Of a stretch of DNA of 64,000 bases, positions 3,081 through 60,510 are shown piece by piece. The first letter of the stretch is position 1. Each line of letters opens with the position of its first letter. Location: IMG/VR virus record IMGVR_UViG_3300032285_003393, positions 37,704 through 101,703 of that record; one strand, written 5' to 3'. The notes under the pieces are model-generated. The model was not told the DNA's origin and did not search any database. It worked only from the letters and a program-made list of their open reading frames with translations. The stretch is from a virus. The position numbers were made by a program, and so were the translations under genes.

Positions 3081-3220
3081 TTCTTTTTTAATCCATACTT
3101 CTCTAGGTATCTTACTATTGTCATATGGCTACATCCCGCTTCTTTAGCAATTGTAACCACATCTTTTCTTTGAACTATATATCTACTATATAGCCAATCT
3201 TTATTCTCATACAGCTTCAT
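3077..3220 (-). CDS. Small helix-turn-helix DNA-binding protein (47 aa)
   Basis: Hand translation MKLYENKDWLYSRYIVQRKDVVTIAKEAGCSHMTIVRYLEKYGLKKK; HTH pattern; overlaps both neighbours. Confidence 0.7.
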   Translation of the reverse strand: MKLYENKDWLYSRYIVQRKDVVTIAKEAGCSHMTIVRYLEKYGLKKK

Positions 3221-40331: not shown

Positions 40332-40666
40332 TAGATTATCCCCATTTTTTTCTTATTTACTAAATCTTCTTTAAGTGCTGGAATGTCCCATTCATCTGCT
40401 ACAAGTCCCCACTCTAATCTTTGCTTTTGAAGTTCGTACTCTTCATCAGTAACTGGTCTATGACCTGATTGCCACAAGGGTTTACCCTCTTCAATTCCAT
40501 AATCTTTTGCAAAATTACGCAATGCATTTATTTTGGTAACATCTCCTTTTGTAGCATAGATGCACATATAGTTTCCATCTTCGTCTGTAACGACTTTACC
40601 ATCAGGCATCTGCCAGAGATAGACCCCGTAGTTTACCTCTTCTACTTCAGTTACTTTCATTTTCAT
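40331..40666 (-). CDS. Hypothetical protein upstream of portal
   Basis: 111-aa ORF, apparently leaderless, stop coupled to portal start. Confidence 0.65.
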   Translation of the reverse strand: MKMKVTEVEEVNYGVYLWQMPDGKVVTDEDGNYMCIYATKGDVTKINALRNFAKDYGIEEGKPLWQSGHRPVTDEEYELQKQRLEWGLVADEWDIPALKEDLVNKKKMGII

Positions 40667-43700: not shown

Positions 43701-44304
43701 GTTGATTATAAAAAACAGAAGCGTAGTTATTAAAGTATTGTGTTCCAGAAAGTGAAGTATAGTACCCAATTGAAATCAAAAGTATCTTTGGATAAGAATT
43801 AATGCTGCTTCTAAAACCTATATCTGATCTATAGTTATTTGTAGCAAAACTATCGTAGGTAGTAAAATCTAGCCCCTGCCCGTCTTGCCAATCTAATGAC
43901 AACCAAAACTCTGCTGCCCAAGTGTGCGGGTTTGAAGATGGAACAAAAACATCATAAACGTTTTTAATTTCAATAGACGAAGATGCTCCTAATTTTACAG
44001 AAGTTTGGTTTCCCATAACTATAGGACTAAAGTAACTTAATCCTGTAAGATATGGAGTATTGTTTTTTGCAGTTTGATCAATAACCTTCAATGTATTAAT
44101 TGAAGCATAATTTGAAAAAGAACTGTACAGATTTCCATATGTACTATCATGTGGGTCTCCAGGGACTGGGGAGATTAAACGATTTACTCCATACCCACCG
44201 CCATATGGATTATAATTTAAATTTAAATCGTAATATTTATAATCGCTATCAATAGGAAAATATCCTAGAGGGTTGTCTCTATTTACTGAATAAAAATATG
44301 ACAT
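40714..44304 (-). CDS. Large virion protein with LamG-like and carbohydrate-binding (CBM4/9-like) domains
   Basis: DNPLGYFPID N-terminus, AAEFW, LITNPSFETNNTGW...YTISAYFY...WTRAS. Confidence 0.65.
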   Translation of the reverse strand: MSYFYSVNRDNPLGYFPIDSDYKYYDLNLNYNPYGGGYGVNRLISPVPGDPHDSTYGNLYSSFSNYASINTLKVIDQTAKNNTPYLTGLSYFSPIVMGNQTSVKLGASSSIEIKNVYDVFVPSSNPHTWAAEFWLSLDWQDGQGLDFTTYDSFATNNYRSDIGFRSSINSYPKILLISIGYYTSLSGTQYFNNYASVFYNQQTNSIEFYVPQADGSYDKAYSVVSDIDSPMHIYVTYSNKTINVSINGKSGISAYVGNGLYQDANILNNYYNMIFRFSGGFTYVDPSTNTLRTQQLQNNQYVLLSNLTFYDYILTERQLANHIKWAFYDNKPVKDSIQYGNHIFDLEENTSNFAYSKNFSNKDFNDYSDIYNLNISSTGLQPQKINRISFNNLDKTSVLSVPSDGSGADWIGGKAGLDFNDFGKLSSNPCTISLVVEPSVSHPDEYIFAISNVNGSSTLFIDRSSNTYNLKYYDVLNGGTITTIGSVTPNYTKPYHKIAVSLTNNSAILTVISAVSESSVSLSDITTQSSPYSQTFVFASNSILTVGQSYHNGNDLSNLLANSSIFSYLGISDVYVSDFTNKYINGYYYSNGYPWNGIIKYSCPLQYYYDLYNSVASTQSFPVYQMGYWITTLPLSALDSIAGSKVDWNSTNNCLVEYSFNDPTVAHQEQNWYALSRNGGPITGFNFSNKLANMRIRVTMITKYDVQDTNQSFNNLSIGFYRNMNFYSDGESFLLTPGSRSANGTSFTIKNHSKPIQARPNNLGLLFAYSSSDSSIPGYAKIKNVYNKNIAGLDFWFRGDTNYQSKKILVGDSTIAGYPDLYTDSNGRFGWNSNIKSVYINGYTIENAASAAAASEVTGVYSVNPYNPLHISVILNRTDLITNPSFETNNTGWSSAQTSGVVRNSTYQYSGTYSGRVTMSSTTDSNIAYTPATLASGTYTISAYFYIPAGSTIAGRTVSLTAETSGATTSNSTSATLTVGSWTRASARVTVTGATSAKNLVARLSNTPNVNLSTASGNGTIITYTTQGAAAHGLTTGDIVTITGFTPTGYNQTSKSVTVLNTTQFTIAGSTTGTSSGTGLCAPALNLANASGQIIYTDAWMIEAGTVLGVYIDSEAPYAGDIYLNGTSTDIGPEASYGFINIWETRMTQKDALDRFSLFVYNSTSIASNDNYMDTTSIPVNFDMQKDMPIPHKIGT

Positions 44305-44316
44305 TTAGCCCCCTAA

Positions 44317-45093
44317 TTATTGTGCAATCTTTGAAAGTCTCCATGTAACGTTAGTGGTAGTTGCATCAGTAACTGTAACTTGAAGAATTGCATTAGAAGC
44401 TGAATAGGATGCAAGAACATTCACTCCCGTCATAGAAGCACCAATTTCAACAATGCCATATTCAGAACTACTAACTATAGTAGATCCATCTGTAATAACA
44501 CGAATTGTTGATGCTCTGACTTTTGTTCCCTGTTTCATTTGTAAAAGATATTCAATTCCAATAAAAGAAGAAACAGCAACTGTGTCAATTGTAGTTGCTG
44601 TATTTGCTGTAAGCGTTCCAGAGGTTTGCGAGAAGCCAGTTCCCGTACCTGTTCCTGGGGTAAATGTTGGAGATGCCCAAGTTGGGGCTCCACCAGATAC
44701 TGTTAATACATAACCATTTGTTCCGATACCCAGCCAAGATGGGATACCGCTTGCGACAGAAAGTATTGATCCTGAACCGCCAATACTTAAAGTTGTTGCT
44801 GTTGATACTGCTGAGCCGTTAGAGCCAGCATAAATTATATCTCCCTTTGTCGTGAAGGGGACTGCTAAAGCTATCTGGGCATCTGCATAACCTTTGGTAG
44901 CTGCATGAGTGCTTAGTGTTGGAGTTCCAATTGTTAGCGTTCCGCCAGTCTCTCTGTACGGAATAGTATTTATCGCTGCAGTTGTTGTTATTTGGTTATC
45001 TATAGTTATTGCTAAGTTATAAATATCCGAAGGAACATCAACAGAGTCGGTAGATAGCGGATAAGGGAACCCCTTGGATGTTGTAGATGCCAT
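44317..45093 (-). CDS. Tail fibre-like structural protein
   Basis: TSKGFPYP, AATKGYAD, TTKGDIIY, GTNGYVLTVSGGAPTW fibre motifs. Confidence 0.65.
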   Translation of the reverse strand: MASTTSKGFPYPLSTDSVDVPSDIYNLAITIDNQITTTAAINTIPYRETGGTLTIGTPTLSTHAATKGYADAQIALAVPFTTKGDIIYAGSNGSAVSTATTLSIGGSGSILSVASGIPSWLGIGTNGYVLTVSGGAPTWASPTFTPGTGTGTGFSQTSGTLTANTATTIDTVAVSSFIGIEYLLQMKQGTKVRASTIRVITDGSTIVSSSEYGIVEIGASMTGVNVLASYSASNAILQVTVTDATTTNVTWRLSKIAQ

Positions 45094-45141
45094 AAAAGTA
45101 TTATACCAAAAATAGCCTGAAAAGCATTTAAATTGTTAGAA

Positions 45142-45168
45142 TATAGTGCATGTTATCCATGCACTATA
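45142..45168. terminator. Intergenic stem-loop, probable terminator
   Basis: Perfect 11-bp inverted repeat TATAGTGCATG / CATGCACTATA, 5-nt loop, just after the 45177 stop. Confidence 0.6.
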
Positions 45169-45176
45169 CAATAACA

Positions 45177-45419
45177 TTACTTTGATGGAGTATCTGCAGC
45201 AGGAGTTGATTCTTCAACTGGTGCTGACGGATTTAATAGATAATCAATGTACTCTTTTGTCCACTTTTCAGCTTCATCAAAATCAGCCCAAGGCATTCCT
45301 AGTGGGTTAACTGGTTGACGCAAAAATGGAGCATCATTTTCATTCGGATTATCATCATTCCAAATTTCAACGACATTATCTTGATTAATATCGTATCTAT
45401 AGTTTTCTATGTTTTTCAA
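45177..45419 (-). CDS. Small acidic protein, possible fibre assembly chaperone
   Basis: TTG start at 45419 with GGGAGG RBS; PFLRQP..P.G.PW...EAEKW pattern. Confidence 0.55.
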   Translation of the reverse strand: MKNIENYRYDINQDNVVEIWNDDNPNENDAPFLRQPVNPLGMPWADFDEAEKWTKEYIDYLLNPSAPVEESTPAADTPSK

Positions 45420-46099
45420 GGTGCTATTCCCTCCCATGTTAGTTTCATCATTTTGTGATGTGTTACTTGAACTGTTGGATCAAAGTAAACCTCAAATCCT
45501 AGTTCATTTACTCTATGACACCACGAAGTGTCTTCTCCCATTATAGCAAATGGTAATTCTTGTCCGTCTGGTCCTTTAATTATATCATTTGATGCCTGAA
45601 ACCATGGTCTTGATAGGCTTTCAAAAACTCCGTTTTTTACACAGATAAAACCAAAACCTGCTGAATAAATCTTTTCAATTTCCTTCAAGTCCTTAACCTC
45701 TTCATAAGAGAAAGGCCTTCCAAATTTTTCTTTGTGTGCAACTACGGAGCCATTAGCCAATAGGTAGGCTCCAGAGATTACATCTTTGTCTGATGCATAT
45801 AATTTAATAACATCTTCTGCTTTCCAAGCAATATCGGAATCAATCCACATTATTTTATCATAGGTTATATCACCTTTAAATGGGCGAGAATCAAAAGGAT
45901 TCATCTCTGGCCCACCATTTAATGTCATCTCTCTAGCATCTCCTACATGAGAAGAATATTCATTTGAGTATCCCCAAGTAATACCTGCTTTATTTAATTC
46001 GTTGGCGGTCTCTAATAAACTTTTAACATATGAACCCATCAATGAATGTCCTGGAGTACAGATCATTAGATTGACATGATTTTTAATTTCTTTTGTCAT
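45416..46099 (-). CDS. GT-A fold glycosyltransferase-like protein inside the fibre block
   Basis: IMWIDSDI (DxD), VISGAY, AGFGFICVK, GEDTSWC, DPTVQVTH. Confidence 0.75.
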   Translation of the reverse strand: MTKEIKNHVNLMICTPGHSLMGSYVKSLLETANELNKAGITWGYSNEYSSHVGDAREMTLNGGPEMNPFDSRPFKGDITYDKIMWIDSDIAWKAEDVIKLYASDKDVISGAYLLANGSVVAHKEKFGRPFSYEEVKDLKEIEKIYSAGFGFICVKNGVFESLSRPWFQASNDIIKGPDGQELPFAIMGEDTSWCHRVNELGFEVYFDPTVQVTHHKMMKLTWEGIAP

Positions 46100-46116
46100 T
46101 TTACCTATTTTTCTAT

Positions 46117-49100
46117 TTAAGCATTTACCGAATATAAAGAGAATATAGACGGATAATATGTATTTGTTGTCGTAGTATTAATTGTACCAGATGCTAAATT
46201 ACCATTTTTATTAGCAATAAGAACTCTTCCAGTGCTTGGGTTATAAGCAACATTGTGATTATATGTAGATATCACTGATGCTTCAGATGGCAATGTTAAT
46301 GTAGACAAAGTTCCAGCTGAGGGGTTTAAAATAGCTACCTGTGCTGCATTTATAGAATATTTATTTTGTTTAGCATTTGTTGCAATTATAAATGTTGAAC
46401 CTGGTCCTGCATTTACTGATACTGGAGTTGAATAACATTCCATGTACTGATTGTAACCAGTATTGCCATAATAATAAGCTGCATAGAAACTAGCTGAAGT
46501 TAGATGATTAGCAGCGGGAAGAAAATATGAAGTCCATGTAATACTATCTGTGGATGTAAAAATATTTGCAGTTGTTCTAGAATTTGTCACAACACAAATA
46601 ACTCCTGTTGTTGAATTATAAGATACATCAACAACTCCTGCAGTTCCCATAGCTGTATTAAAATATACATTTGAATTTAATATACTTAAGTTTGCTGAAT
46701 AATTTAAGCTAGATGCTAGTGATCCATTATATGCATAAAAACTTGATCCTTGACCATTTGGACCACCCCCGTTTGCAGTTATAAATGAACTTCCATTATA
46801 AGCAATAGAATTTATTCCACCTAATTGTGTAGAGTTTGTTGCAAGAGTTACAGCAGTCCATGTAATTAAATCTGTTGATTGTTGAATTCCACCTGTTGTA
46901 AAATCAGAAGATCTGAAATTTGTAAATCCTAAGTAGTTTTGATTCCATATACTTGACTGATAAGAATAAGTAGATCCTTGTTGAGAACCTAACATATACG
47001 CATAATTTGAGATAGATGGCTTAGTTACATGATTAGAATATGTTGCATAGTATTTTCCATTTAAATAATCTAAATCATTAATTTGATATCCGATTGTAAT
47101 GCCAGATGTTCTTGCTGTCCAAGTTGTTCCATCAGTAGATGTATATATATTTCCTTCAAGAGTTCCTACAACATATGTTGTATTTAAATATGCAACAGAA
47201 GTAATAGTTTCAAGAGTAGTAGATAAAGAACGTGCAGTCCATGTTATTGTATCTGTTGATGTGTATAGCCTTCCGCCTAAACCTGCAGCAAGATAGAGAT
47301 TGTTTCCATAAGCTACAGAATTAATTTGTAAAGATATAGATTCAAGAGAAGGATCAGCAACAGTTGATCCAGTATTTATAGGACTATATAGATAATAACT
47401 TGCAGTTGAAGTAGCCATTGTTGGATAATATGTCAAGCCGTCGTTGCTGGAAGTACTTGCGTTTATAGTATAAGATTCATTTGTAATATATCTAGTTGCC
47501 CATGTAGAACCATCAATAGAAGTTGGAGTAATAATTGTTCCATTAGATGTACCCAGTATAACTGGATAAGCTGATGATGTATAGGTGAATGGAAGGGCTG
47601 TATTTATGCTTGATGTAACTCCAGATGATCTTACTGTCCAAGTGATACCATCGGTAGATGTTGTCAAGGTTCCACTATCGCCTGCAGCAACAAATAACCA
47701 TTGTCCATTTGCTTGAGGTCTTCCAGTAATTACTCTAATTGCAGTTGTTCCAAAGCCAGATGTTCTAGAGTTCCAGGTTGTTCCATCGGTAGATGTTGAT
47801 AAAGAACCATTATCTCCACCGATTATATATAAACCTGCTCCATATGCAATAGCTCTAATTGCATTTGCACCAAAACCAGATGTACGGGAAACAAAAGTTG
47901 GAGAACTCCATGTAGTATTTGTACTTGCATATGTATAAAGTGCTCCTGCTGCTCCGCCTACTAAGTATAGATTGTTGGCCCATACAAATGCATTCCATGT
48001 TCCAGCTAATGACGTTGTTGCAGCTGCACCGAATTCGCTTGTTGAATATTGATATAAAGTTGATGCACTTGCAATTAATATTAAAAATCCTGCAGTATTT
48101 GGAGCATCGCAAACAAATGGAGTTGTTGTATATGAAGTACTTGAAGCAGTCCAGGCATTAGTATAAGCTGTTGAAGTATGGCCAAAGACCTTTCCAGAAT
48201 TATCAAGAAGTCTAGTGTAGTTATTTGGAGAAGAATATGAACTAACAAAATAAGTATATGTAGGCACAATAAGCGGAGGAGATACTGTCATAATTGAGCC
48301 ATAGTTTGTACCATTTACATATATTCTTAATCCTGCTGGGGCTCCAGGCATCGGGGTACTACCAAAATTATAATTTGAAGTATTCACATATGGGTTTGCA
48401 GTTAAACCTACTATATGAGATCCATATGGCAAAATTCTATGTGTAAAACCATAAGTAGTACTATAGCTTGCTAAATATGAAGTATTCATATTATTCATAG
48501 CAGTCCATGTTATTCCATCAGTAGATCCATAGAGGTTCTGGACGACTGTTGCGCCTGTTGGTAATGGTAGAGCATAAAATGTTGTTCCAATTACTGTAAA
48601 GTTATAGTTTGATCCGCTTGCTGGTTGCGTCGGATTTGTCCAAGTAACTGCATCTGTAGAACGATAAAAAGTAGCAGTATTGTAGTTACTAGCAAGAAGA
48701 AAAGCAGTTCCATTATGAACAACATTTGATCCACATACGCCAGTTGCAGTAATTGTAGTCCATGTAACTGCATCTGTTGATGTAAAAATAAAGTTAACTG
48801 CACCAGTTGATCCACCTGCTGCAACATATTTACCGCCACCATATGCTAAACCGACTATGGAAGGTTGAGTTGGTACAGTTCCAAAAGCCCATGTAACTGC
48901 ATCCGTACTGACTAAAATATTACTTGATGCGCTTCCTTGTCCAAGACCAATTACATATTTTGTACCATATACTCCATTATATGCAGTAGAAAAAGCTGCA
49001 GAAGTAAATCTTTGTGTCCAAGTTATTGTGTCTGTAGATGTATATAGAAAACCAGCTGAGCCATTATACATGGTAGCAATCCATAAGTTATTTAAATAAT

Positions 49101-49893
49101 GTATTGTAGCGTAGCCTACTGTGTCACTTGTTGCAGTTACTGGCATTGTTCTTGCTACCCAGGTAGCTCCTCCGTCTGCAGATACAAGTAAAGTATTTAA
49201 ATATATTGCTGAAAATGCAGCTATTAATCCATTTCCTGCAGTAGCAAATGATGCTTGTTTATCAGTTTTATTGCCACTTCCACCAATAAAAGCATTGGCT
49301 GAAACAATTTGTGTTGGTACTACTGATGAAGCATTCAATGGATTTTCACTTGTATCTATAACAGTTAAATTATTTTCTATGGTAATTACTCCTTGACTAT
49401 TTGAAAAAGATATGAGCCTACCATCTTTTGTAAGAATATAACCTTGTCCATTTGATCCATTACCAGATAGTAATTGATTTGTTGCATTTGCGCCACTTGT
49501 GGCAGAATAATATCTTGGAGTAATACTTGCAATTGCAGGAGCATTGTTTAATACTGGTCTTGCTGTTGCAGAAGTATATGGATATGTAACTGTTGGGATT
49601 GTTCCGCCAGTAATTGAAAGTGTTGAAGGAGTTGATGCATAAAAATAAACTGGAGCTCCAGTAGAACTAAATGTTCCAGATACATTTCCACTTCCAGTAA
49701 ATGTATAATTTATGGGAACTCCTGGATTAGTACCTACTCCATCATCAATGATATCTGCTGTAATAGCATACTTTCCAGCTGCCAGCGTTCCATTATATGT
49801 ATATGTTCCAGTTGGCTGATATGTTGCAAAAAGCTGAGCCGTTGCATTTCTTGGGCTAGAAGATGGGGATGAAGGATAGGTTGACTGTGCCAT
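46117..49893 (-). CDS. Beta-propeller repeat protein (Asp-box/BNR-like), probable receptor-binding or virion appendage
   Basis: Many (T/V)STD(G/A/T)xTWT repeats preceded by AYGxxxY blades. Confidence 0.75.
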   Translation of the reverse strand: MAQSTYPSSPSSSPRNATAQLFATYQPTGTYTYNGTLAAGKYAITADIIDDGVGTNPGVPINYTFTGSGNVSGTFSSTGAPVYFYASTPSTLSITGGTIPTVTYPYTSATARPVLNNAPAIASITPRYYSATSGANATNQLLSGNGSNGQGYILTKDGRLISFSNSQGVITIENNLTVIDTSENPLNASSVVPTQIVSANAFIGGSGNKTDKQASFATAGNGLIAAFSAIYLNTLLVSADGGATWVARTMPVTATSDTVGYATIHYLNNLWIATMYNGSAGFLYTSTDTITWTQRFTSAAFSTAYNGVYGTKYVIGLGQGSASSNILVSTDAVTWAFGTVPTQPSIVGLAYGGGKYVAAGGSTGAVNFIFTSTDAVTWTTITATGVCGSNVVHNGTAFLLASNYNTATFYRSTDAVTWTNPTQPASGSNYNFTVIGTTFYALPLPTGATVVQNLYGSTDGITWTAMNNMNTSYLASYSTTYGFTHRILPYGSHIVGLTANPYVNTSNYNFGSTPMPGAPAGLRIYVNGTNYGSIMTVSPPLIVPTYTYFVSSYSSPNNYTRLLDNSGKVFGHTSTAYTNAWTASSTSYTTTPFVCDAPNTAGFLILIASASTLYQYSTSEFGAAATTSLAGTWNAFVWANNLYLVGGAAGALYTYASTNTTWSSPTFVSRTSGFGANAIRAIAYGAGLYIIGGDNGSLSTSTDGTTWNSRTSGFGTTAIRVITGRPQANGQWLFVAAGDSGTLTTSTDGITWTVRSSGVTSSINTALPFTYTSSAYPVILGTSNGTIITPTSIDGSTWATRYITNESYTINASTSSNDGLTYYPTMATSTASYYLYSPINTGSTVADPSLESISLQINSVAYGNNLYLAAGLGGRLYTSTDTITWTARSLSTTLETITSVAYLNTTYVVGTLEGNIYTSTDGTTWTARTSGITIGYQINDLDYLNGKYYATYSNHVTKPSISNYAYMLGSQQGSTYSYQSSIWNQNYLGFTNFRSSDFTTGGIQQSTDLITWTAVTLATNSTQLGGINSIAYNGSSFITANGGGPNGQGSSFYAYNGSLASSLNYSANLSILNSNVYFNTAMGTAGVVDVSYNSTTGVICVVTNSRTTANIFTSTDSITWTSYFLPAANHLTSASFYAAYYYGNTGYNQYMECYSTPVSVNAGPGSTFIIATNAKQNKYSINAAQVAILNPSAGTLSTLTLPSEASVISTYNHNVAYNPSTGRVLIANKNGNLASGTINTTTTNTYYPSIFSLYSVNA

Positions 49894-49894
49894 T

Positions 49895-50722
49895 TTATGC
49901 TATGGTTACTCCTGAAATGTTAAATGTAACTGCGGGGTGTGAAGCTGTTCCTACTATATTCTTTGTAGCTGCCACCACTTGCTTAAGATCAAAAAATGCT
50001 GTTGAGTTTGGATTAAGTGTTTGTTGATAGTTTGTATTAAACTGATCAAGAACAAGAGAAAATGTTTGAGGGGCAGACGTTGGATTAGAAACCAAGATGT
50101 TTGTAGCAATTGCTGTAGTTGCTGAAGCAACCTGATAAATTTGAGGATATTTTCCTACTGCTGCTGTTGTTGATGTAACTGCAGTTGTTGCTGCTGTTTG
50201 AGTAGATACAGAATAAGAAAATGTTGTTGTAGTTGGAACTGCAATAACTTGAACCTGTAATCCATCATAAATAGTATCACCAATTGTTACTGCTACTAGA
50301 TCTCCCACCACAAAACCGTGAGCAGATGCGGTAGTAAGAGTTGCTACATAGTTTTGAACAACTTTATTTGAAACACCTTTACCAGATGCTGCTGCACCTG
50401 TTGCTCCAACTCCATATAGATAAGATATTCCATTTGGAGATACTGCTGCAGAAGTTACGTTAGTTGCTGTTTTTGCATAGTTAAATGTATAAGCACCAGT
50501 TGTACCTCCAACTGCACATACTACAAATGATCCATCAAATGTGGAGTCTACACCTGTAACTGTGACAATTGAACCTACTGCAAATGGATTTGCTCCACCT
50601 GTAGCGTTTGTAGTAATTGTTGCTACGTTTGATGTTAATGCTTTGTTGGTAATTGAAGAAATTGTTGGTGTTACACCAAGAAGGGGATTACCTCTATATA
50701 ATGATACTGCGGTTGTTGCCAT
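49895..50722 (-). CDS. Virion protein with two repeated beta domains
   Basis: NKALTSNVATIT...VTVTGVDSTFDG and NKVVQNYVATLTT..HGFVVGD units. Confidence 0.6.
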   Translation of the reverse strand: MATTAVSLYRGNPLLGVTPTISSITNKALTSNVATITTNATGGANPFAVGSIVTVTGVDSTFDGSFVVCAVGGTTGAYTFNYAKTATNVTSAAVSPNGISYLYGVGATGAAASGKGVSNKVVQNYVATLTTASAHGFVVGDLVAVTIGDTIYDGLQVQVIAVPTTTTFSYSVSTQTAATTAVTSTTAAVGKYPQIYQVASATTAIATNILVSNPTSAPQTFSLVLDQFNTNYQQTLNPNSTAFFDLKQVVAATKNIVGTASHPAVTFNISGVTIA

Positions 50723-50829
50723 TAGCTATACGCTCCCATGATTACAAGGAGCTCAATGTCTTTACCATTAATTTGGATTTGGCCACCAGTCTGGATGCCA
50801 TTTTTTACTTTAAAGTCTGTATCTGCCAT
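50722..50829 (-). CDS. 35-aa fibre-motif mini-protein
   Basis: Hand translation MADTDFKVKNGIQTGGQIQINGKDIELLVIMGAYS; upstream TGCTATAAT and AAGGGGA; TAATG coupling to next gene. Confidence 0.6.
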   Translation of the reverse strand: MADTDFKVKNGIQTGGQIQINGKDIELLVIMGAYS

Positions 50830-50894
50830 ATTGGTTCACTGTCCCCTTTACGTTATGAGTTTATTATAGCATATAGTTTGCACGATACAAACTA

Positions 50895-52379
50895 TTACCA
50901 AGCACCCATAATATCCATAATTTTAACTTCGTCTGCAAGCATTGCTAGTGTTACAGAATTTGCTGCTGGTGTGCTTGAAGGGTGAACGTGATCTGCTCTT
51001 GCAGGTATTGTTGAGATTCCAGCTGATGCCGTTCCAGATGTTGAGCCTACAGTTGAAGAAAGCAATGAACCAGCAAGTCCAGATGCAGAAATTGTTGATG
51101 TGGTAGAAAATGCTCCTGCTCCAGAAAGAGTTGCTATATTTGTGTTTCCCGCATACCATTTAAAAGATGAAGTTGAACTATCAATAGATTGCCAGAAAAC
51201 CCCACTATCTATACCTAATGCATAGTCAGCTGCTGATGTAGCTAGAGAAGGATATAAAACAATTTTAGTTCCTACTGAACGAGTTAAAACTGCAGGAGCA
51301 GCTAATCCTGTACTATTAAATTCAAGTCTATTGCTTGTTGCACCATTTAAATAAATTTGTCCGTTACCAGTAACATCAGTTCCTGTAAGAGTAGATATTA
51401 TTCGTCCATTAAATGTTGTTGTTCCATTAAGAGCAATTGTAGGTGTTGTTCCAGCGGTAGTTCCAATATTAATTGTTGTAATAGAACCAGTTGAACCATT
51501 TGTACCAATATTAATTGCTTTAGTTCCAGATGTTGTAGCACCTGTAAGAATATTTACAGTTCCTGCTGTCGCTGTTCCCGTTCCACCCAAAGTTAGCGTT
51601 CCAGATGTTATGGCTCCACCAATTTGAATTGTTCCAGTAGTCAATCCTGTATTCCAAAGTGCTGCAGTTCCAGTAGTAGTTAAAGATGTATTTACAGTAT
51701 CAATTACAGGAGTTGTAATAGTTGGAGATGATCCAGTTATAATAGTTCCTGATGAAGGTAATGTTGCACCATTAATAGATGTTACTCCAGGAAGGGAAGT
51801 GATTGTTCCTGTACCAGCATTTATTGCAATTGCTTGTGTGCCAATATAAAATGTTTGATTATTTAATGGAACAGTCCCAGTTGTTGCAGGAAGCGTAATT
51901 GTAGTTCCATCAGTTCCCGCTAAAGTAATAGTATTTGATACTGTTAAAGTTTTAGAAGTAGTTCCTCCAGCAATAGAAAAACCTGTGGCAAGAGCAGTTT
52001 CAGTAAGTGGGGGAGTATATGTAGATCCAGATCCAACTCCTCCATTTGCCAACAAATATTGACTTGAAGTTCCACCTGGAATTGCAAAACCTGAAGCAGT
52101 TACTGTTGATGGAACTGCTAAAGCTCCTGAATCTGTAAGATCAAACAGTGTAGTTGTATATCCACTATTTACAATTTGTAAACTACCCGTTGAGTTTATT
52201 CTAAAATATTTATTTGGATTTGTAGCAGAGCCATATGTATTAGTTGCTTCAAGAAATCCATGATACCCAGTTCCGCCACGTTGATTATATCCAGTAGCTT
52301 TAATACTAGAGTTTGACCCATCACCACCTGTAACAACAACAATGGGTATATTTGCATTGGCTAAAAATTTCTTTGTCAT
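50895..52379 (-). CDS. Tail fibre-like protein
   Basis: Thr/Gly-rich, MTKKFL N-terminus, ARADHVHP motif. Confidence 0.7.
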   Translation of the reverse strand: MTKKFLANANIPIVVVTGGDGSNSSIKATGYNQRGGTGYHGFLEATNTYGSATNPNKYFRINSTGSLQIVNSGYTTTLFDLTDSGALAVPSTVTASGFAIPGGTSSQYLLANGGVGSGSTYTPPLTETALATGFSIAGGTTSKTLTVSNTITLAGTDGTTITLPATTGTVPLNNQTFYIGTQAIAINAGTGTITSLPGVTSINGATLPSSGTIITGSSPTITTPVIDTVNTSLTTTGTAALWNTGLTTGTIQIGGAITSGTLTLGGTGTATAGTVNILTGATTSGTKAINIGTNGSTGSITTINIGTTAGTTPTIALNGTTTFNGRIISTLTGTDVTGNGQIYLNGATSNRLEFNSTGLAAPAVLTRSVGTKIVLYPSLATSAADYALGIDSGVFWQSIDSSTSSFKWYAGNTNIATLSGAGAFSTTSTISASGLAGSLLSSTVGSTSGTASAGISTIPARADHVHPSSTPAANSVTLAMLADEVKIMDIMGAW

Positions 52380-52400
52380 ATCACTCCTATTATACCATTT

Positions 52401-52431
52401 GGGGGATTAGGGATATATTCCCTAACCCCCC
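52401..52431 (-). terminator. GC-rich stem-loop after the long fibre gene
   Basis: 13-bp stem with one G-U pair on the minus strand, 5-nt loop; no U-tract. Confidence 0.6.
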
Positions 52432-52455
52432 GTATCAATTATATTATCTTTTCAA

Positions 52456-55400
52456 TTATCCAACTACAACTACGTTGTAAGTTGTGGTATTTGCAGGAGC
52501 AGTAGCAAAAGTTACTCTTACCTGCGTTGTTGAAATTCTATTAATATCAACCTCAACCTCATCATATTGTGTATCTGGACCTGCTGAAGTTTGATAAACT
52601 TGGCAAGAAATATCACGAGTTCCAAGACTGTGAGTTAATGTAAACGCTGTTGTTGTATTATCTCCAGTAATTGTTCCTGTATACTTCTGAGCTGGAGTTC
52701 CAGACAAAGAGATTGTTGCTGCAGCAGAACCGTTATATGTAGTTGTGCTGATTGTTAATCCAGTTCCTGCAGAAAGGTTAAATAGATTTGAACCTAGTGC
52801 AACTCCAGAAATCGTGCTATTTGCAAGTTGAGTATTACTAATACCTGCAGACTTTACAGCTACCGCACCAGTTGTTACTGTGAATGTATTTGTATCAAAT
52901 GATGCAATACCCTTTACAGTAGTTGTTGCATCTCTAACATCCGCAGAGACTGTTCCAGTAACACGACCATATGAATCTACAGTATGTGATTGAACAAAAT
53001 TAATTCCTGCAGTTCCTGTTGTATTTGTTTGGGATACTGTTGCAAGATCAATGCTATCTGGGTTGATAACAATTCTTCCAGAGTTTGCTGTAGTAACGTT
53101 GAAGATATTACCGCTTCTTGTTAAACCGTCACCAGCTGTAATATCTGATGCTCCTGAGAATTGTGACCAGTTAACTGCTGATGTACCAACAGTGGTTATT
53201 ACTGAAGTAATAATCCATCCTTGACCACCATTTGCAGTACCATTTACTACATAAGTAAGATCTCCTTGGCCGAGCTCTGGAGTTTGATCATTATCAGTTG
53301 CACGAGTAAATACAAACGATGTAGTATTTCCAATTGCACCAACAGAAGTTACTGTATATATACCATTTTGTAACGCTGCTGCTTGATTCTTAATCAAGAC
53401 TCTATCATTAACAGTTAATGATTGGCCATCAATTGTAATAGCAGTCCAGTTAGTTGATGTTGCTATTGTTAAAGTAGCTCCAACACCTAAAGTTCCATTT
53501 GCATAAGTTGTTGTTATCGTTCCGCCAACTAAGTTACCTGCTGTACCAAGTGCTGCTGTAGTTGCATATAGAACTGCATCATGAGCATTTACTCCAGATG
53601 CTATTCCATCAACATAAGACTTTGTAGCAACGTCTGTTGAGTTTGTAGTTGTTCCAGAAAGCGTAATCATTGTTGCAGAGAAGTTGCCAGAAGCATCACG
53701 CTGAACAATTGCACTATTTGTATTATTGCTTGTAGCAGTTGTCCATGTTGGGGTAGATGCTCCAGCGGATGTTAATACCTGACCAGATGTCCCTGCAGAT
53801 GTAAATGCATAAGCAGTTCCAGTTCCTACCGCTACAGCTCCTGCTGTTGGAGTAGCAGAACCGTTTGTACCACCCTTTGCAATTGAAAGAGTAGTAATTG
53901 CTGGTTCGTATGCTGTAGAAGCAGTAAATGCTGCAGAACCAAGTGTTCCACCTGCACCAATATTAAGTGTGCTTCCATCTGTTCCAGCTAATGTTAGCGT
54001 ATTGCTAACTGTTAATGTTTTAGAAGTTGTTCCGCCCGCAATTGTAAATCCCGTTGCTCCAGCGGTTAACGTTAAACCATTAAATGTTGTAGAAGTAAGA
54101 TTACCTGTTGAAGGGGTAAATGTAAGTTTTGTGGATGTAGTCTTCTGTGGAAGGTTTCCAGTATTTGCTGTTACCCATGTTGGATACACAGCAGAAGAAG
54201 TTGCTGTATCTTCTGTAATTGCTGTATTGGTTGCATTTGTTGCAGAACCCACAGAAAGTGAAGATTGGTTCGTCCAGCTTGGAGCTGCAGCTCCACCAGA
54301 AAGAAGAACTTGGTTAGAAGTTCCTGCTGCTGATATCGCAAGAGCAGAAGATCCAGAGTAAACAATTCCGCCATTTACTGCTGTAAGGTTAGCATTTGTA
54401 CCACCTTGTGCAAGTGTTGCTTGTCCGCTAAATCCTGTGATTGAAGAATCGGTAAATGCAATTGTTTTACGAACTGTTGATGGGCTAAAGTAAAGGTTAG
54501 TTCCATCAAATTCCATTGCTCCCGCAACAACTGCTGTTGTATTTGTTCCTGAAACAAATTTAAGTGGAGCGTTAGATGTTGATCCTGTAGGAAGAGTTAC
54601 TGTTCCTGTAAATGTTGGGGAAGCAGAGAAAACAAGAGTTCCGCTTCCAGTTTCATCAGTAATAGCTGATGCTAAGTTTGCAGATGTTGGAGTTGCAAGG
54701 AATGTAGCAATACCTGTTCCAAGTCCTGACACTCCAGTAGAGATAGGAACAGTAACTGTTCCACTTCCGCCTAGTGATATTGATGTTCCGTTTACTGTTA
54801 CAGAAGAGTTTGCAAGCATTGTATTTGTAACAGTTGCTGAATCTCCTGTTGTAATTACTGTACCAGTTGTTGCTGGCAAAGTGATTGTTGTTGAACCAGC
54901 TGTTGCTGATGCTTTAAGATTTGTTGTTCCCGATGTTGAACCTGAGAAGTTTGCTCCACCTCCACCAATTGTTGGTGTTGTGAGTGATGGGCTTGTTGCA
55001 AATACTAATAAGCCTGTACCAGTTTCATCAGATACTGCTGATAATAAGTTAGCAGAAGAAGGAGTTGCTAAAAATGTCGCTACTCCAGTACCTAATCCTG
55101 TGATTCCAGTGCTTACTGGTACTTGAATTGTAATGTTGGCAGTACCATCAAAAGATACTCCATTAATAGTTCTTGCTGTTTGCAAAGCAGTTGCTGTTGA
55201 AGCATTTCCTGTAATGCTTGAATCTGTAAATGCAATTGTCTTTGTAGCAGTTCCGTTATAGAATTTTAGTGTTCCTGTATTATTCCAAGCATCTCCAGAT
55301 GCTGGTGTAGTTGGGTCTGATCCAGTAGGAATGTTAATTGCTGCTGCAGAAGTTGTAGATGCAGTAAGAGTTGTCTTACCTGGTAGAGTTACATTTGTAG

Positions 55401-55695
55401 GGAGGGATAATGTAATTGTACTTGATGCTGCATTAACGGCAATCTGATTTGAAGTTCCCGCAATTGTGACTGCTCCAGTTAGAGAGTTAAGAGAAGAGAC
55501 TGCAGTTGACCCTGATGTAAGAGCAACCCAGTTTCCTGTACCTGCTGCGGTTGAATAGTATAGAGTTGAGTTACCAGTATTGTAATAGAGTTGTCCTGAT
55601 GCTGACGCACTTGGAGCTGATGCAGCTGATTGCTGCCTTGCGTTGATAAGTTGATTACCACCTAAATCAACGTTTACTAAAAATTTCTTTGACAT
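52456..55695 (-). CDS. Long tail fibre protein
   Basis: MSKKFLVNVDL, TARTINGVSFDGTANI, DVATKSYVD, DRVLIKNQ...NGIY, HSLGTRD fibre modules. Confidence 0.8.
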   Translation of the reverse strand: MSKKFLVNVDLGGNQLINARQQSAASAPSASASGQLYYNTGNSTLYYSTAAGTGNWVALTSGSTAVSSLNSLTGAVTIAGTSNQIAVNAASSTITLSLPTNVTLPGKTTLTASTTSAAAINIPTGSDPTTPASGDAWNNTGTLKFYNGTATKTIAFTDSSITGNASTATALQTARTINGVSFDGTANITIQVPVSTGITGLGTGVATFLATPSSANLLSAVSDETGTGLLVFATSPSLTTPTIGGGGANFSGSTSGTTNLKASATAGSTTITLPATTGTVITTGDSATVTNTMLANSSVTVNGTSISLGGSGTVTVPISTGVSGLGTGIATFLATPTSANLASAITDETGSGTLVFSASPTFTGTVTLPTGSTSNAPLKFVSGTNTTAVVAGAMEFDGTNLYFSPSTVRKTIAFTDSSITGFSGQATLAQGGTNANLTAVNGGIVYSGSSALAISAAGTSNQVLLSGGAAAPSWTNQSSLSVGSATNATNTAITEDTATSSAVYPTWVTANTGNLPQKTTSTKLTFTPSTGNLTSTTFNGLTLTAGATGFTIAGGTTSKTLTVSNTLTLAGTDGSTLNIGAGGTLGSAAFTASTAYEPAITTLSIAKGGTNGSATPTAGAVAVGTGTAYAFTSAGTSGQVLTSAGASTPTWTTATSNNTNSAIVQRDASGNFSATMITLSGTTTNSTDVATKSYVDGIASGVNAHDAVLYATTAALGTAGNLVGGTITTTYANGTLGVGATLTIATSTNWTAITIDGQSLTVNDRVLIKNQAAALQNGIYTVTSVGAIGNTTSFVFTRATDNDQTPELGQGDLTYVVNGTANGGQGWIITSVITTVGTSAVNWSQFSGASDITAGDGLTRSGNIFNVTTANSGRIVINPDSIDLATVSQTNTTGTAGINFVQSHTVDSYGRVTGTVSADVRDATTTVKGIASFDTNTFTVTTGAVAVKSAGISNTQLANSTISGVALGSNLFNLSAGTGLTISTTTYNGSAAATISLSGTPAQKYTGTITGDNTTTAFTLTHSLGTRDISCQVYQTSAGPDTQYDEVEVDINRISTTQVRVTFATAPANTTTYNVVVVG

Positions 55696-58540: not shown

Positions 58541-59542
58541 TTATTTTATGATATTTGCGTAAATTTGCTTTAATCTTGCTACTGCAGGTTTTGTAACTTC
58601 AATCCAGTCATACTCCCTATGCAATTCAAAAGCACTTCTAAAAGTTTTTTGTAAAATAGAATCATATTCTAAAACTGCATTTTGCATTTGTTCTTTTAAA
58701 TTTTCTTTTTCTGGTTTCATCATCATTCCTGGATGTATTTCTTGCCAAGGTGAATTCATATACCTTGAATCAACTCTCCAAGTTATGTATTTATAGTAAT
58801 CAGCCCAACCATCAGTTGATATAACTGGCATTCCAGAAGCTAGGGCTTGCATAGGTTGAAGCCCCCACCCTTCTCCCCATGAAGGATAAATGAATACATC
58901 ACAAAGTGCGTGAAGTCCAATCATTTGCTCGTTTGTTAAATAATTATCTATTGTAGTTATATTATCATATGCAGCAGCGGGGGAACTAAGAAAACCATAT
59001 TTAGGATCTTTTACTTTTACAGTATTCATACCATTAGACTTTAATACAAGTTTATAATCAGGGTTATTCCCATATAGTTCTATAAATGCTTCGGTAACAA
59101 GGTGAGCATCTTTTCTAGAGAATGGTTCACCAACATGTAAAAATGTAAATGGTTTATGGGAAGTTTTTCTAAGTGTTGGAATCCATTCTGAATTAATTCC
59201 ATGCTTGTAAACAAAAACATCTTTATTAAAAATATTTTTAAATATATCTGCAACCCAAGGTGAAGTTGCCCAAATTTCATTTCCACGCAAAATATTTTTT
59301 TGCCAGTCTGGATGTAATCCAGTACTTTCCCAAGCTGAATAGATTATCTTATAACTATTAGGATTATTAAACACATGACCATTAGGATGATCAAAAGAAA
59401 TTTCTATATCTGCATTTGGAGAATTAATTTCTACTTCAACACCAAGATGTTTAAATGAGTTATATATATTATATGCAGCTTGACCATAGCCTAAATTTGT
59501 ATCCATATTAGCAAATGCTGGTCCAGTTAATGATATTAGCAA
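58541..59542 (-). CDS. Glycosyltransferase family 4 (GT-B)
   Basis: GYG, WEST, FLHVG...RK, DVFIYPSWGEGWGLQPMQALASGMPVI. Confidence 0.88.
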   Translation of the reverse strand: MLISLTGPAFANMDTNLGYGQAAYNIYNSFKHLGVEVEINSPNADIEISFDHPNGHVFNNPNSYKIIYSAWESTGLHPDWQKNILRGNEIWATSPWVADIFKNIFNKDVFVYKHGINSEWIPTLRKTSHKPFTFLHVGEPFSRKDAHLVTEAFIELYGNNPDYKLVLKSNGMNTVKVKDPKYGFLSSPAAAYDNITTIDNYLTNEQMIGLHALCDVFIYPSWGEGWGLQPMQALASGMPVISTDGWADYYKYITWRVDSRYMNSPWQEIHPGMMMKPEKENLKEQMQNAVLEYDSILQKTFRSAFELHREYDWIEVTKPAVARLKQIYANIIK

Positions 59543-59562
59543 CTATGCTCCCTTGTTTTTCT

Positions 59563-59581
59563 TATTATATCATGCTACAAT
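59563..59581. promoter_or_regulatory. Overlapping divergent extended -10 promoters at the strand switch
   Basis: TGATATAAT on the minus strand and TGCTACAAT on the plus strand, back to back. Confidence 0.6.
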
Positions 59582-59617
59582 TATTCTTACCTGTCAGTAA
59601 AACGAGGAGGTAAGGGA

Positions 59618-60250
59618 ATGAGAAAATATTCAAAGTTCCATCTAACACTAGTTATATTGATAACTATGGCTAATTCTATGTTTGGGGTCCCAGGGTTTCA
59701 ACATGTAGAAAAAGCGACAGCACTTGACTTTAAAAATCAAGCTATGTATAATAAAAATATATCTAATATATATAATAATATAAATATTAAATATATAAGT
59801 ATTAAATTATATAATATAAATATATTAAATAATATTAATAATAATAAAACAAAACTGAATAATACACTTAGCTTCACAGAAAAAACTGAGATCTTAATGT
59901 ATTCTATTAAACAAGTTGAATCTAATGGCAGGTATAAGGCTAAATCAAAATGGTCTTCAGCTTGTGGAGCATATCAGTATATGCCCATCACTTGGAATAA
60001 CTATAAGGGTTTCAAAAACGCATGTCTAGCCCCTGAGTGGGCACAAGATGCCAGAATGCGTGGAGAAGTTAAGTATCTCTGGAAAAAGTATGGCGATTGG
60101 TCTAAAGTCATCGCTGCACATTATTCGCCAGCCTACGCTGGGGATAAGTCCAAATGGGGTAAATCCTGGGGCGGACTTAGCATAAGAGAATATGTTCATC
60201 GTGTGCAAACAAGAATGAACAAAATAATAGTAGGCTTGGCTACTACATAA
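59618..60250 (+). CDS. Secreted lytic transglycosylase-like (SLT/lysozyme fold) protein with Asn/Ile-rich linker
   Basis: N-terminal signal-like segment; ESNGRY, ACGAYQYMPITW, QD, AAHY motifs. Confidence 0.8.
   Translation: MRKYSKFHLTLVILITMANSMFGVPGFQHVEKATALDFKNQAMYNKNISNIYNNINIKYISIKLYNINILNNINNNKTKLNNTLSFTEKTEILMYSIKQVESNGRYKAKSKWSSACGAYQYMPITWNNYKGFKNACLAPEWAQDARMRGEVKYLWKKYGDWSKVIAAHYSPAYAGDKSKWGKSWGGLSIREYVHRVQTRMNKIIVGLATT
59724..59752 (+). promoter_or_regulatory. Near-consensus sigma70/sigmaA promoter internal to the transglycosylase gene
   Basis: TTGACT (59724-29), 17-bp spacer, TATAAT (59747-52). Confidence 0.7.
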
Positions 60251-60258
60251 TTAAATAG

Positions 60259-60284
60259 GTGGGGGGATGTAAAAGTCCCCCCAC
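60259..60284 (+). terminator. GC-rich stem-loop after the transglycosylase gene
   Basis: GTGGGGGGA / TCCCCCCAC 9-bp stem just after the stop; no U-tract. Confidence 0.6.
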
Positions 60285-60306
60285 TCCTACTAGAGAGTTA
60301 AATAAA

Positions 60307-60510
60307 ATGCAACTAGCAGTATTTATAAAAAAGCAATTATCAGATGATCCATATATGTGTATCAATCAAGATCATGCTATGCCCCTAGTTGCTAAAATTA
60401 ATATTGAGATGGAAATAGAATTAAAATGTTTTACAGGATATTGTGATTTTAAAATAAAACCTGGTATTAATACATATGAAAAACTTTTGAAAGAATTCCC
60501 TAGTGACTAG
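60307..60510 (+). CDS. Small Cys/His hypothetical protein
   Basis: CINQDH...CFTGYC; start moved to ATG 60307 because the ORF-track start lies in the hairpin. Confidence 0.6.
   Translation: MQLAVFIKKQLSDDPYMCINQDHAMPLVAKINIEMEIELKCFTGYCDFKIKPGINTYEKLLKEFPSD

Follow-up and report, generated by a model that had tools for sequence, protein, structure and literature searches.

An A/T-only tract behind a probable in-gene promoter in a predicted phage lytic transglycosylase gene: DNA with two apparent jobs and a possible replication origin

The 5′ part of a phage gene for a predicted lytic transglycosylase appears to do two jobs at once: it encodes a conserved peptide and it forms an A/T-only DNA element, and the case that both are under selection is well supported by comparison of related sequences. 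That an element acting at the level of DNA exists in this part of the gene is very likely, and it probably includes a working promoter of the sigmaA/sigma70 type. The use of this promoter and the adjoining easily melted DNA as a replication origin is a tentative reading, weighed below against other explanations. The evidence for two-job DNA goes beyond that of a first reading made from the letters of the sequence alone (the sequence-only reading), which had proposed a candidate origin here. The window, that is, the whole stretch of 64,000 nucleotides that was analysed, comprises bases 37704-101703 of the 101,703-bp IMG/VR record IMGVR_UViG_3300032285_003393, a genome of 36% G+C. Positions below are those of the window unless marked as genome positions.

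58541..59542, minus strand: GT4-family glycosyltransferase gene, the first gene of the minus arm and a conserved neighbour at the junction
59543..59617, strand not applicable: divergent promoter hub of 75 bp, defined by consensus match and by aligning 24 loci of the clades A and B
59553-58 and 59576-81, plus strand: putative rightward promoter P1, with -35 TTGTTT, a 17-nt spacer and TGcTACAAT carrying the -10; assigned by consensus only
59569-64, minus strand: -10 of the putative leftward promoter PL, within TGaTATAAT; assigned by consensus only
59618..60250, plus strand: predicted secreted lytic transglycosylase gene, GH23/Rpf-like, 210 aa, the first gene of the plus arm
59724..59752, plus strand: predicted internal promoter P2, with -35 TTGACT at 59724-59729, a 17-nt spacer and -10 TATAAT at 59747-59752
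59747..59849, plus strand: A/T-only tract of 103 bp with 2 G/C (C at 59764, G at 59799), codons 44-77
60259..60284, plus strand: GC-rich hairpin of 9 pairs (7 G-C) without a U-tail, 9 nt past the stop codon

The genome is taken as a circular assembly because the 101,703-bp record has a 123-bp end overlap, and such an overlap was seen in two assemblies. It is organized in two arms: a plus arm of small genes runs from genome position 97.3 kb across the record ends to 14.7 kb, and a minus arm runs from 97.2 kb down to 14.75 kb. Replisome genes for a Cas4-like nuclease, RecA, Pol III alpha, DnaG and DnaB are located at window 4-14 kb and head genes at 34-40 kb. Neither a replication initiator gene nor features of lysogeny were recognised among the phage ORFs scanned, and a phage RNase H or FEN-type exonuclease was not found. 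The host is almost certainly an actinobacterium, since WhiB is encoded by the phage and by four relatives (5/5 related genomes). The metagenomes that yielded relatives come from humic lakes, such as Trout Bog. Cultured relatives could not be found; in tblastn against phage records only the RNR gene matched, to Streptomyces and other phages. Isolates of Nanopelagicales phages exist (PMC10202952). Relatives of the transglycosylase gene comprise 98 protein clusters, 129 viral contigs and 40 metagenome contigs, and their contig ends differ. We refer to the window-like sequences as clade A and to those 35-40% identical overall as clade B, with the subclades A′ and B′.

We predict that the product of the gene is a secreted lytic transglycosylase. 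A strong AGGAGG precedes the ATG, and the N-terminus resembles a signal peptide (approximately codons 1-35); it is followed by a segment rich in N, I, K and Y (codons 44-77) and by the catalytic part (approximately codons 86-210), with Glu101. While no Pfam match passed the threshold, a profile search detected phiKZ gp144 with an E value of 0.001, and in Foldseek all top matches of the C-terminal part were Slt, MltD, phiKZ gp144 or Rpf, with a probability of ~1 and E values above 1e-3. The alignment of relatives has E101, S113, A115, G117, A118 and Q120 invariant. The protein thus combines a lysozyme-like fold with a catalytic Glu in an E-S motif and a subsequent GA.Q-type motif, as in GH23-type enzymes. 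The full extent of the gene is easily missed: gene callers began it at M17 in the genome of the window, and seven clusters of relatives start at M94, so that annotations of several assemblies carry a truncated version. The hairpin behind the stop codon is a probable terminator. It occurs at the same place in all clade A loci with differing stem sequences, and clade B has a comparable hairpin ~40 nt further on. For this reason, the transglycosylase gene looks like a single-gene unit, and P2 does not seem to feed the downstream early genes.

The tract lies 130-230 bp inside the gene and encodes YNKNISNIYNNINIKYISIKLYNINILNNINNNK in the window. It is the most AT-rich 100 bp of the 101.7-kb genome and the easiest DNA to melt there, and no other 103-bp window with 12 or fewer G/C occurs in the whole 101,703-bp genome. 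In all four complete genomes this place is the AT extreme, with 2-5 G/C per 100 bp versus 12-18 in the next-best window. The tract is single-copy per genome, and the element is always found in the first plus-strand gene, 74-85 bp from the divergent switch (all four complete genomes). Several statements of the sequence-only reading could be confirmed directly. A TTGACT-17-TATAAT promoter (59724-59752) indeed points into a 103-bp block with two G/C (59747-59849), the block stays free of stops in codons 44-77 of the ORF at 59618-60250, and it is close to the sole real strand switch of the window, at 59542/59618. A random A/T-only run would remain stop-free over 34 codons in one frame with p ~0.011, that is, (7/8)^34. 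From 59753 onward, the plus strand has 58 A to 37 T. Tandem Repeats Finder (TRF) reported periods of 9, 15 and 23 nt within the block, the first two being multiples of three, and a second TATAAT is located at 59810. No iterons were found at the tract, only low-complexity self-similarity. Two further candidates were rejected: an antisense ORF over the block (46 aa, hydrophobic), which is open over 56-70 codons in 5/6 clade A loci, over 34-36 in locus L014 and over 27-45 elsewhere, and an inverted repeat, AGTTAT-ATTG-ATAACT at 59651-59666, where relatives have GTA for ATA.

Comparison of the relatives separates the constraint on the peptide from that on the DNA. The segment reads VYNKNISNIYNNINIKYISIKLYNINI in clade A and IVYNKNILYINKYNNLVNIKDIINIDYNNIL in clade B, and Y44, N45, I48, N50, N53, I57, K58 and I60 are nearly invariant over both clades; AlphaFold models it as helical with low to moderate confidence. 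The segment was correctly placed by the sequence-only reading between the signal segment and the catalytic domain, but rather than the drifting linker envisaged there it appears to be a conserved peptide with a protein-level constraint of its own. Likewise, homologs of clades A and B keep the -10 and the AT content as had been anticipated, but the expected drift of the peptide was not observed, the pattern of the peptide being conserved even in B′, which lacks the AT richness. Under the refuting condition named in that reading, this conservation speaks against an element made of DNA alone. Six amino acids that can be encoded with A and T alone (N, I, K, Y, F and L) account for 91% of the block residues in clade A, and this near-complete confinement would permit an overlapping DNA element.

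The choice of codons points to such an element. Encoding the window peptide with the codon usage of the genome would give 10.9 +/- 2.5 G/C in 34 codons, whereas two are present (p ~2e-5). ATA accounts for 6/9 Ile codons in the block versus 27% genome-wide, and AAC, ATC, AAG and TAC are each used at 14-37% elsewhere in the genome. Among ~50 distinct relatives, third-position G+C in the block is 0.04 in clade A and 0.10 in clade B versus 0.26-0.29 in the rest of the gene. The core bins of clade B reach 0.00-0.01 (for example, 0/400 and 0/391), and third-position G+C is ~0 over more than a thousand codons. Of the sites that vary within the block, 59% (A) and 36% (B) switch only between A and T, compared with 12% and 7% for the catalytic part, and the length of the block core varies little. 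Within the block, codons 44-52 (TATAAT plus 27 nt) are frozen, with synonymous-difference fractions of 0.010 (B) and 0.077 (A) versus 0.43 and 0.38 in the catalytic part, and the two clades are identical over the first 16 nt of this zone. Codons 53-77 show synonymous differences of 0.17-0.24, but within A/T only. The earlier notion of dual-use DNA thus gains weight from the codon test, the third positions and the synonymous conservation of the promoter hexamers.

P2 matches the consensus at 11/12 positions and is the best sigma70-like match within 54-64 kb; its predicted start is near 59759. Its letters fall in the codons L-D-F ... Y-N. In clades A and A′, nearly all members have TTGAC-17-TA[TC]AAT via synonymous conservation of the L-D and Y-N codons, an exception being locus L011 with TTTGCA at 18-nt spacing. 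The synonymous-difference fraction is 0.06-0.08 over codons 37-52 in clade A and 0.01 over codons 44-52 in clade B, as compared to 0.38-0.43 in the catalytic part. Clade B retains TATAAT in 36/38 distinct sequences and has no -35; instead, a perfect TGTGA-N6-TCACA is found exactly 70 nt upstream of TATAAT in 35/38 distinct sequences. This site falls within the codons of the membrane segment, where the use of GTG, CTC/ATC and ACA preserves it, CTC and ATC being minor codons in this genome. By analogy, the clade B site and -10 would form an activator-site layout like that of T4 middle promoters. Genome-wide, 21 sites match the promoter consensus at 11/12 or better, versus 7.3 +/- 2.7 in shuffled sequences, and 19/21 are oriented with the gene arm (10/10 on the minus strand, 9/11 on the plus strand). 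The resemblance of P2 to the consensus therefore goes beyond chance. Eight other near-consensus sites were checked against the list of gaps and all were intergenic, while P2 lies inside a conserved gene.

P2 is located 170 bp downstream of P1, and PL is 190 bp away from the P2 module. The core of the hub that contains P1 and PL is nearly invariant across the 24 aligned loci of clades A and B. The extended -10 elements of P1 and PL share the CATG at 59571-74, and since the two promoters stand back to back with this one common sequence they probably cannot be occupied at once. A TGTCAGT box at 59592-59598 was rejected as a promoter element, as no TAnnnT hexamer occurs at 16-bp spacing.

The subclades offer a natural comparison. 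In B′ the segment reads TISYSSDVLYINKYMNLVTIKDMITID and the hydrophobic pattern of the peptide is kept, while TATAAT has become TACAGC and the block contains 19-31 G/C per 100 bp, with a third-position G+C of 0.37 that is not below the rest of the gene. It follows that the peptide does not need A/T codons, and that there is no intrinsic mutational bias at this place. In every B′ locus with the junction covered, the intergenic region measures 315-632 bp instead of the usual 40-85 bp. The insert brings several conserved boxes, an AT-rich stretch of ~55 bp beside the leftward gene and, ahead of the transglycosylase gene, a consensus TTGACA-17-TAC[GT]AT promoter. The in-gene promoter and the A/T tract were thus lost together after the junction was rebuilt in B′. 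As this is a single evolutionary event, the joint loss is suggestive and not statistical. No extreme AT island occurs within a 73-kb genome fragment of B′, where the best window has 11-13 G/C per 100 bp; the extreme tract is therefore dispensable or replaceable. Subclade A′ keeps the promoter and has a 21-nt G/C-rich insert directly after TATAAT, with a run of G6-7 on the non-template strand, followed by a shorter A/T run of ~55 bp.

Conceivably, the element serves to start replication. In this model, RNA polymerase would start near 59759 and transcribe into the most easily melted DNA of the genome, while negative supercoils from the leftward promoter 190 bp away would further destabilise the tract. 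The transcript would be A-rich, because of the excess of A over T on the plus strand of the tract, and A-rich RNA is the more stable orientation for an RNA-DNA hybrid. Either this RNA or just the opened duplex could then become the entry point for the DnaB/DnaG/Pol III-alpha replisome, with forks leaving co-directionally with both gene arms; the module would act like oriF and oriG of T4 and the primary origins of T7. In the sequence, a -10 promoter reads into the element, and the A+T-rich DNA downstream is constrained in composition, its distal part varying only between A and T, as expected of a T4-type origin. That the scanned ORFs include no recognised initiator gene also favours this reading. 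The origin is the single most likely specific job for the element, since no other reading accounts at once for its uniqueness, its extremity and the promoter. In its fullest form the proposal is slightly more doubtful still: an R-loop or open-duplex origin would be set in frame in a cell-wall enzyme gene, conserved over more than 100 contigs of freshwater actinophages, and would work together with a DnaA-box module or in its place.

A serious rival locus for the origin is present in the same genome. Five perfect DnaA boxes lie within 245 bp at genome 15014-15257, two of them 11 bp apart, in a 479-bp non-coding gap of 31% G+C located exactly at the convergent switch and the skew maximum, 19.4 kb from the A/T tract. 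The equivalent gap of relatives G001 and G002 has 3-4 perfect boxes, and that of G004 a weaker cluster. At the tract, on the other hand, no perfect DnaA box occurs within 700 bp, and the three boxes with one mismatch correspond to chance density; the oriC arrangement of a DnaA cluster adjoining an unwinding element is thus absent there. The cluster is a more canonical origin candidate than the tract. The gap is a candidate for a canonical origin or, alternatively, for a DnaA-controlled or injection-stop region.

In the GC skew, the inflection that the sequence-only reading would place at the site was not found: the raw cumulative minimum lies 13-19 kb left of the tract in each of the four complete genomes, and after detrending the minimum is 43-56 kb away. 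The cumulative maximum is at the convergent switch. The local skew does change sign at the tract, but the orientation of the genes by itself would produce this change. As the effects of fork direction cannot be told apart from those of gene orientation, we rejected skew as evidence either way. Of the original proposal of an origin overprinted on an enzyme gene, the overprinted DNA element therefore stands, while the origin is weakened by the DnaA-box cluster and the missing AT island of B′. The failure to find a phage RNase H or FEN-type exonuclease, iterons or adjacent perfect DnaA boxes also counts against it, as does the constraint that the peptide has of its own.

Alternatively, an AT-binding nucleoid protein, Lsr2 of the host or an analogue from the phage, could nucleate on the tract and thereby gate the early hub. 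We regard this as rather unlikely, at about the same level as the expression-related reading discussed further below. A silencer would be recruited at the transcription start and cover P2, P1 and PL; in clade B the CRP/GlxR-like site would serve to relieve it, and in clade A the strong -35. Host Lsr2 is to be expected, given the actinobacterial host inferred from WhiB in five related genomes: Lsr2 occurs throughout the actinobacteria and prefers AT-rich DNA (PMC8406272). Targets of CgpS/Lsr2 show a distinct GC drop at the transcription start site, long AT stretches seldom interrupted by G/C, and A/T steps, and transcription-factor sites at the binding maximum counter-silence (PMC7002338). The tract has all of the published target sequence features (PMC7002338), and clade B has its fixed CRP-like site 70 nt upstream. 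Furthermore, gene-specific control would agree with the single tract per genome and with its position on a secreted muralytic gene that could do harm, and loss of the tract in B′ beside a new regulatory insert fits a replaceable regulatory role. However, no Lsr2 domain was found in five phage genomes, and a 57-aa 'RGR' ORF matches neither Pfam nor solved Lsr2 and has no longer homologues. In addition, silencing leaves the conserved in-gene promoter unexplained, and 2-5 G/C per 100 bp exceeds what known targets need. If the tract were a silencer site, the phage would be deliberately maintaining DNA on which a defence protein of its host nucleates.

A comparably low likelihood applies to the idea that the element is an expression device, in which P2 would give a ~525-nt single-gene transcript with an unstructured A/U leader, yielding an isoform or a boost. 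The isoform would be a signal-less catalytic domain made from an internal Met (M94 in clade A); alternatively, P2 would boost rightward transcription since P1 overlaps the leftward promoter. The conserved terminator-like hairpin after the gene agrees with this, so that P2 would serve this gene only, and so does the back-to-back placement of P1 and PL over their common CATG, which makes them probably mutually exclusive. In B′, moreover, P1 gains a consensus TTGACA and separates from PL while P2 decays. Hardly any clade A sequence lacks M94, the exact start assigned to the proteins of seven clusters (117-119 aa), but these short ORF calls may only reflect gene callers avoiding a stretch of odd composition. 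No Shine-Dalgarno sequence precedes M94, the codon for E91 varies between GAA and GAG, and the Met that clade B conserves stands at a non-homologous position. Lacking a conserved Shine-Dalgarno and a homologous Met in clade B, an internal start at M94 was set aside as only a minor rival. Neither version of the idea needs 100 bp of A/T-only DNA or explains the genome-extreme status of the tract.

It is improbable that the DNA has no function of its own, the peptide alone being selected, with the A/T content arising from N/I/K/Y codons plus slippage or mutational bias in a low-complexity repeat and the promoter by chance. Conservation of the peptide is high even between proteins of 35-40% overall identity, the peptide is modelled as a helix with low to moderate confidence, two of the TRF periods are multiples of three, and A/T-rich DNA easily yields TATAAT, as the copy at 59810 illustrates. 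This account is contradicted by the near-zero third-position G+C in over a thousand codons, by B′, which keeps the peptide pattern at 0.37, by the small length variation of the core, and by the -35 and -10 held at 17-nt spacing through synonymous conservation. Least probable of all is another single-copy DNA site overprinted on the gene, be it a pac site for headful packaging, an injection signal or a partition signal: pac sites inside coding sequences do occur (P22 gene 3, SPP1 gene 1, P1 pacA), and one copy per genome, the circular assembly and the differing contig ends of relatives fit circular permutation, but the pac sites known so far are found within the small terminase gene or next to it, whereas the neighbours here are a glycosyltransferase and early genes, a terminase was not located by Pfam or PHROGs searches, and the conserved promoter would be left unexplained.

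Whichever function applies, the tract pinpoints the control hub of lake actinophages that carry whiB and form a large, uncultured group, and it represents an exceptionally clear natural example of one DNA carrying two codes, with B′ showing the constraint lifted. The A/T tract and the DnaA-box cluster provide two concrete candidates for the replication origin of these phages. Should the tract be the origin, the T4/T7 design of a promoter plus an unwinding element would extend to phages with a bacterial-type replisome.

Several known systems resemble the element in part. In the primary origin of T7, the promoters phi1.1A/B read into a 61-bp AT-rich region, T7 using its own RNA polymerase, and the reading of a promoter into AT-rich DNA is the likeness with the present module. 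The lambda origin, which includes an AT-rich segment, lies inside gene O, encodes an inter-domain linker and needs nearby transcription, and the lambda iterons are bound by the protein that gene O itself encodes. The AT-rich segment inside a coding sequence is shared with our phage; in contrast, no iterons or flanking direct repeats are present at the tract, and the gene encodes a predicted lytic transglycosylase, a cell-wall enzyme unrelated to replication, and not an initiator. With regard to oriC-type origins, it is the DnaA-box module in the AT-rich non-coding gap of the same genome that shows the likeness, whereas the tract has only boxes with one mismatch. The targets of Lsr2/CgpS are similar in the GC drop at the predicted transcription start, the long A/T stretch, the A/T steps and a nearby transcription-factor site (PMC7002338). 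Unlike those targets, the tract lies inside a coding sequence and appears to be kept by purifying selection, not as a by-product of foreign base composition.

The comparison with oriF (uvsY) and oriG (34) of T4 also includes clear differences. The phage tract is about twice as long and lies in frame in a conserved peptide; the replisome, moreover, is of the bacterial type (DnaB/DnaG/Pol III alpha), and a phage RNase H was not found. Nevertheless, the T4 origins are built alike: over ~100 bp, an activator site or -35 and a sigma70-type -10 are followed by an A+T-rich unwinding element (PMC3016281). The T4 unwinding elements need composition rather than a specific sequence (PMC3016281). Moreover, three active T4 origins sit at sites of transcriptional divergence, and oriF and oriG share this nearness to divergence with the element of the present phage (PMC3016281).

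At the convergent strand switch of the window's own genome (L144), outside the window itself, we found five perfect DnaA boxes within 245 bp. The words were TTGTCCACA, TTATCCACA (three times) and TTTTCCACA, with 11 bp between two of the five boxes. The site is a non-coding gap of 479 bp with 31% G+C, and it coincides with the maximum of the cumulative GC skew. Clusters were likewise present in related genomes (G001, G002 and G004), as listed here:

DnaA-box clusters in the window's genome and its relatives
L144:15014-15257, five perfect DnaA boxes
G001 27139-27259, equivalent cluster
G002 40440-40641, equivalent cluster
G004 67570-68089, weaker cluster

The gap in L144 is a candidate for an origin or control region that depends on DnaA. 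The skew also set apart a block within the minus arm (window 40714-55695), where it was zero to positive, in contrast to the rest of that arm. This block holds six large minus-strand ORFs of 1196, 258, 1258, 275, 494 and 1079 aa, five of which had no Pfam or PHROG match, while the sixth gave only a weak tail-fibre match. Searches of the whole genome against Pfam and PHROGs recognised no terminase.

At the divergent switch, two back-to-back extended -10 promoters share one CATG, and this core was nearly invariant across clade A (the window-like relatives) and clade B (35-40% identical):

Extended -10 pair at window 59553-59581
TGcTACAAT, rightward
TGaTATAAT, leftward

The two promoters are probably mutually exclusive. 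Downstream, the transglycosylase gene has in its 5′ leader a TGTCAGT box (window 59592-59598) that is kept in clade A; no TAnnnT hexamer stands at a spacing of 16 bp downstream of this box. The signal-peptide codons at window 59636-59665, TTC CAT CTA ACA ... GTT.TA TTG ATA AC., hardly differed in nucleotide sequence among the ten loci of clade A and its subclade A′; TTC and CTA are minor codons, yet they were kept. An extra constraint on DNA or RNA may act here, just 3′ of the rightward promoter P1.

Within the membrane-segment codons of the same gene, the clade B locus L017 contains a perfect CRP/GlxR-type palindrome, TGTGA-N6-TCACA (L017:3005-3020). Of the 38 distinct clade B loci, 35 have it at this position, exactly 70 nt upstream of the in-gene TATAAT. 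It is preserved through the use of GTG, CTC or ATC, and ACA as codons, of which CTC and ATC are minor ones in the window's genome. In subclade B′, where the TATAAT is lost, the palindrome had decayed in half of the loci. The divergent junction of B′ carries an insert of ~255 bp (L036:2626-2958 and the aligned B′ loci) with conserved boxes, namely ATTTAAAGATTTTAGGCAAAGC, after which comes a C-rich run, and AAAAGCCCCCACAAACCT, as well as a consensus promoter; in L041 and L043 it includes an additional small minus-strand ORF. A mobile promoter cassette is one possible identity of this insert, a small RNA another. In the B′ genome fragment G006 (L146), AT content was highest in two windows, both copies of a T-rich repeat starting AAAAAATTTGCAGCTTTT:

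T-rich repeat copies in G006
L146:16815-16914, 11 G/C per 100 bp
L146:18088-18187, 11 G/C per 100 bp

A GC-rich hairpin (window 60259-60284) begins 9 nt past the transglycosylase stop codon. Because its pairing is maintained among relatives whose stem sequences vary, it is likely to represent a tail-less terminator. The GTG-started ORF at 60259-60510 probably has its true start at the ATG at 60308.

In four A′ loci (L012, L013, L015 and L016), the TATAAT, which forms the Y-N codon pair, is followed immediately by a 21-nt insert (locus positions ~3120-3145) encoding L-T-S/K-A/V-A/T-G-G. Within the insert, 6-7 consecutive G on the non-template strand are conserved, and the A/T run that follows is shortened to ~55 bp. 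G clusters located just past a transcription start are known to nucleate R-loops.
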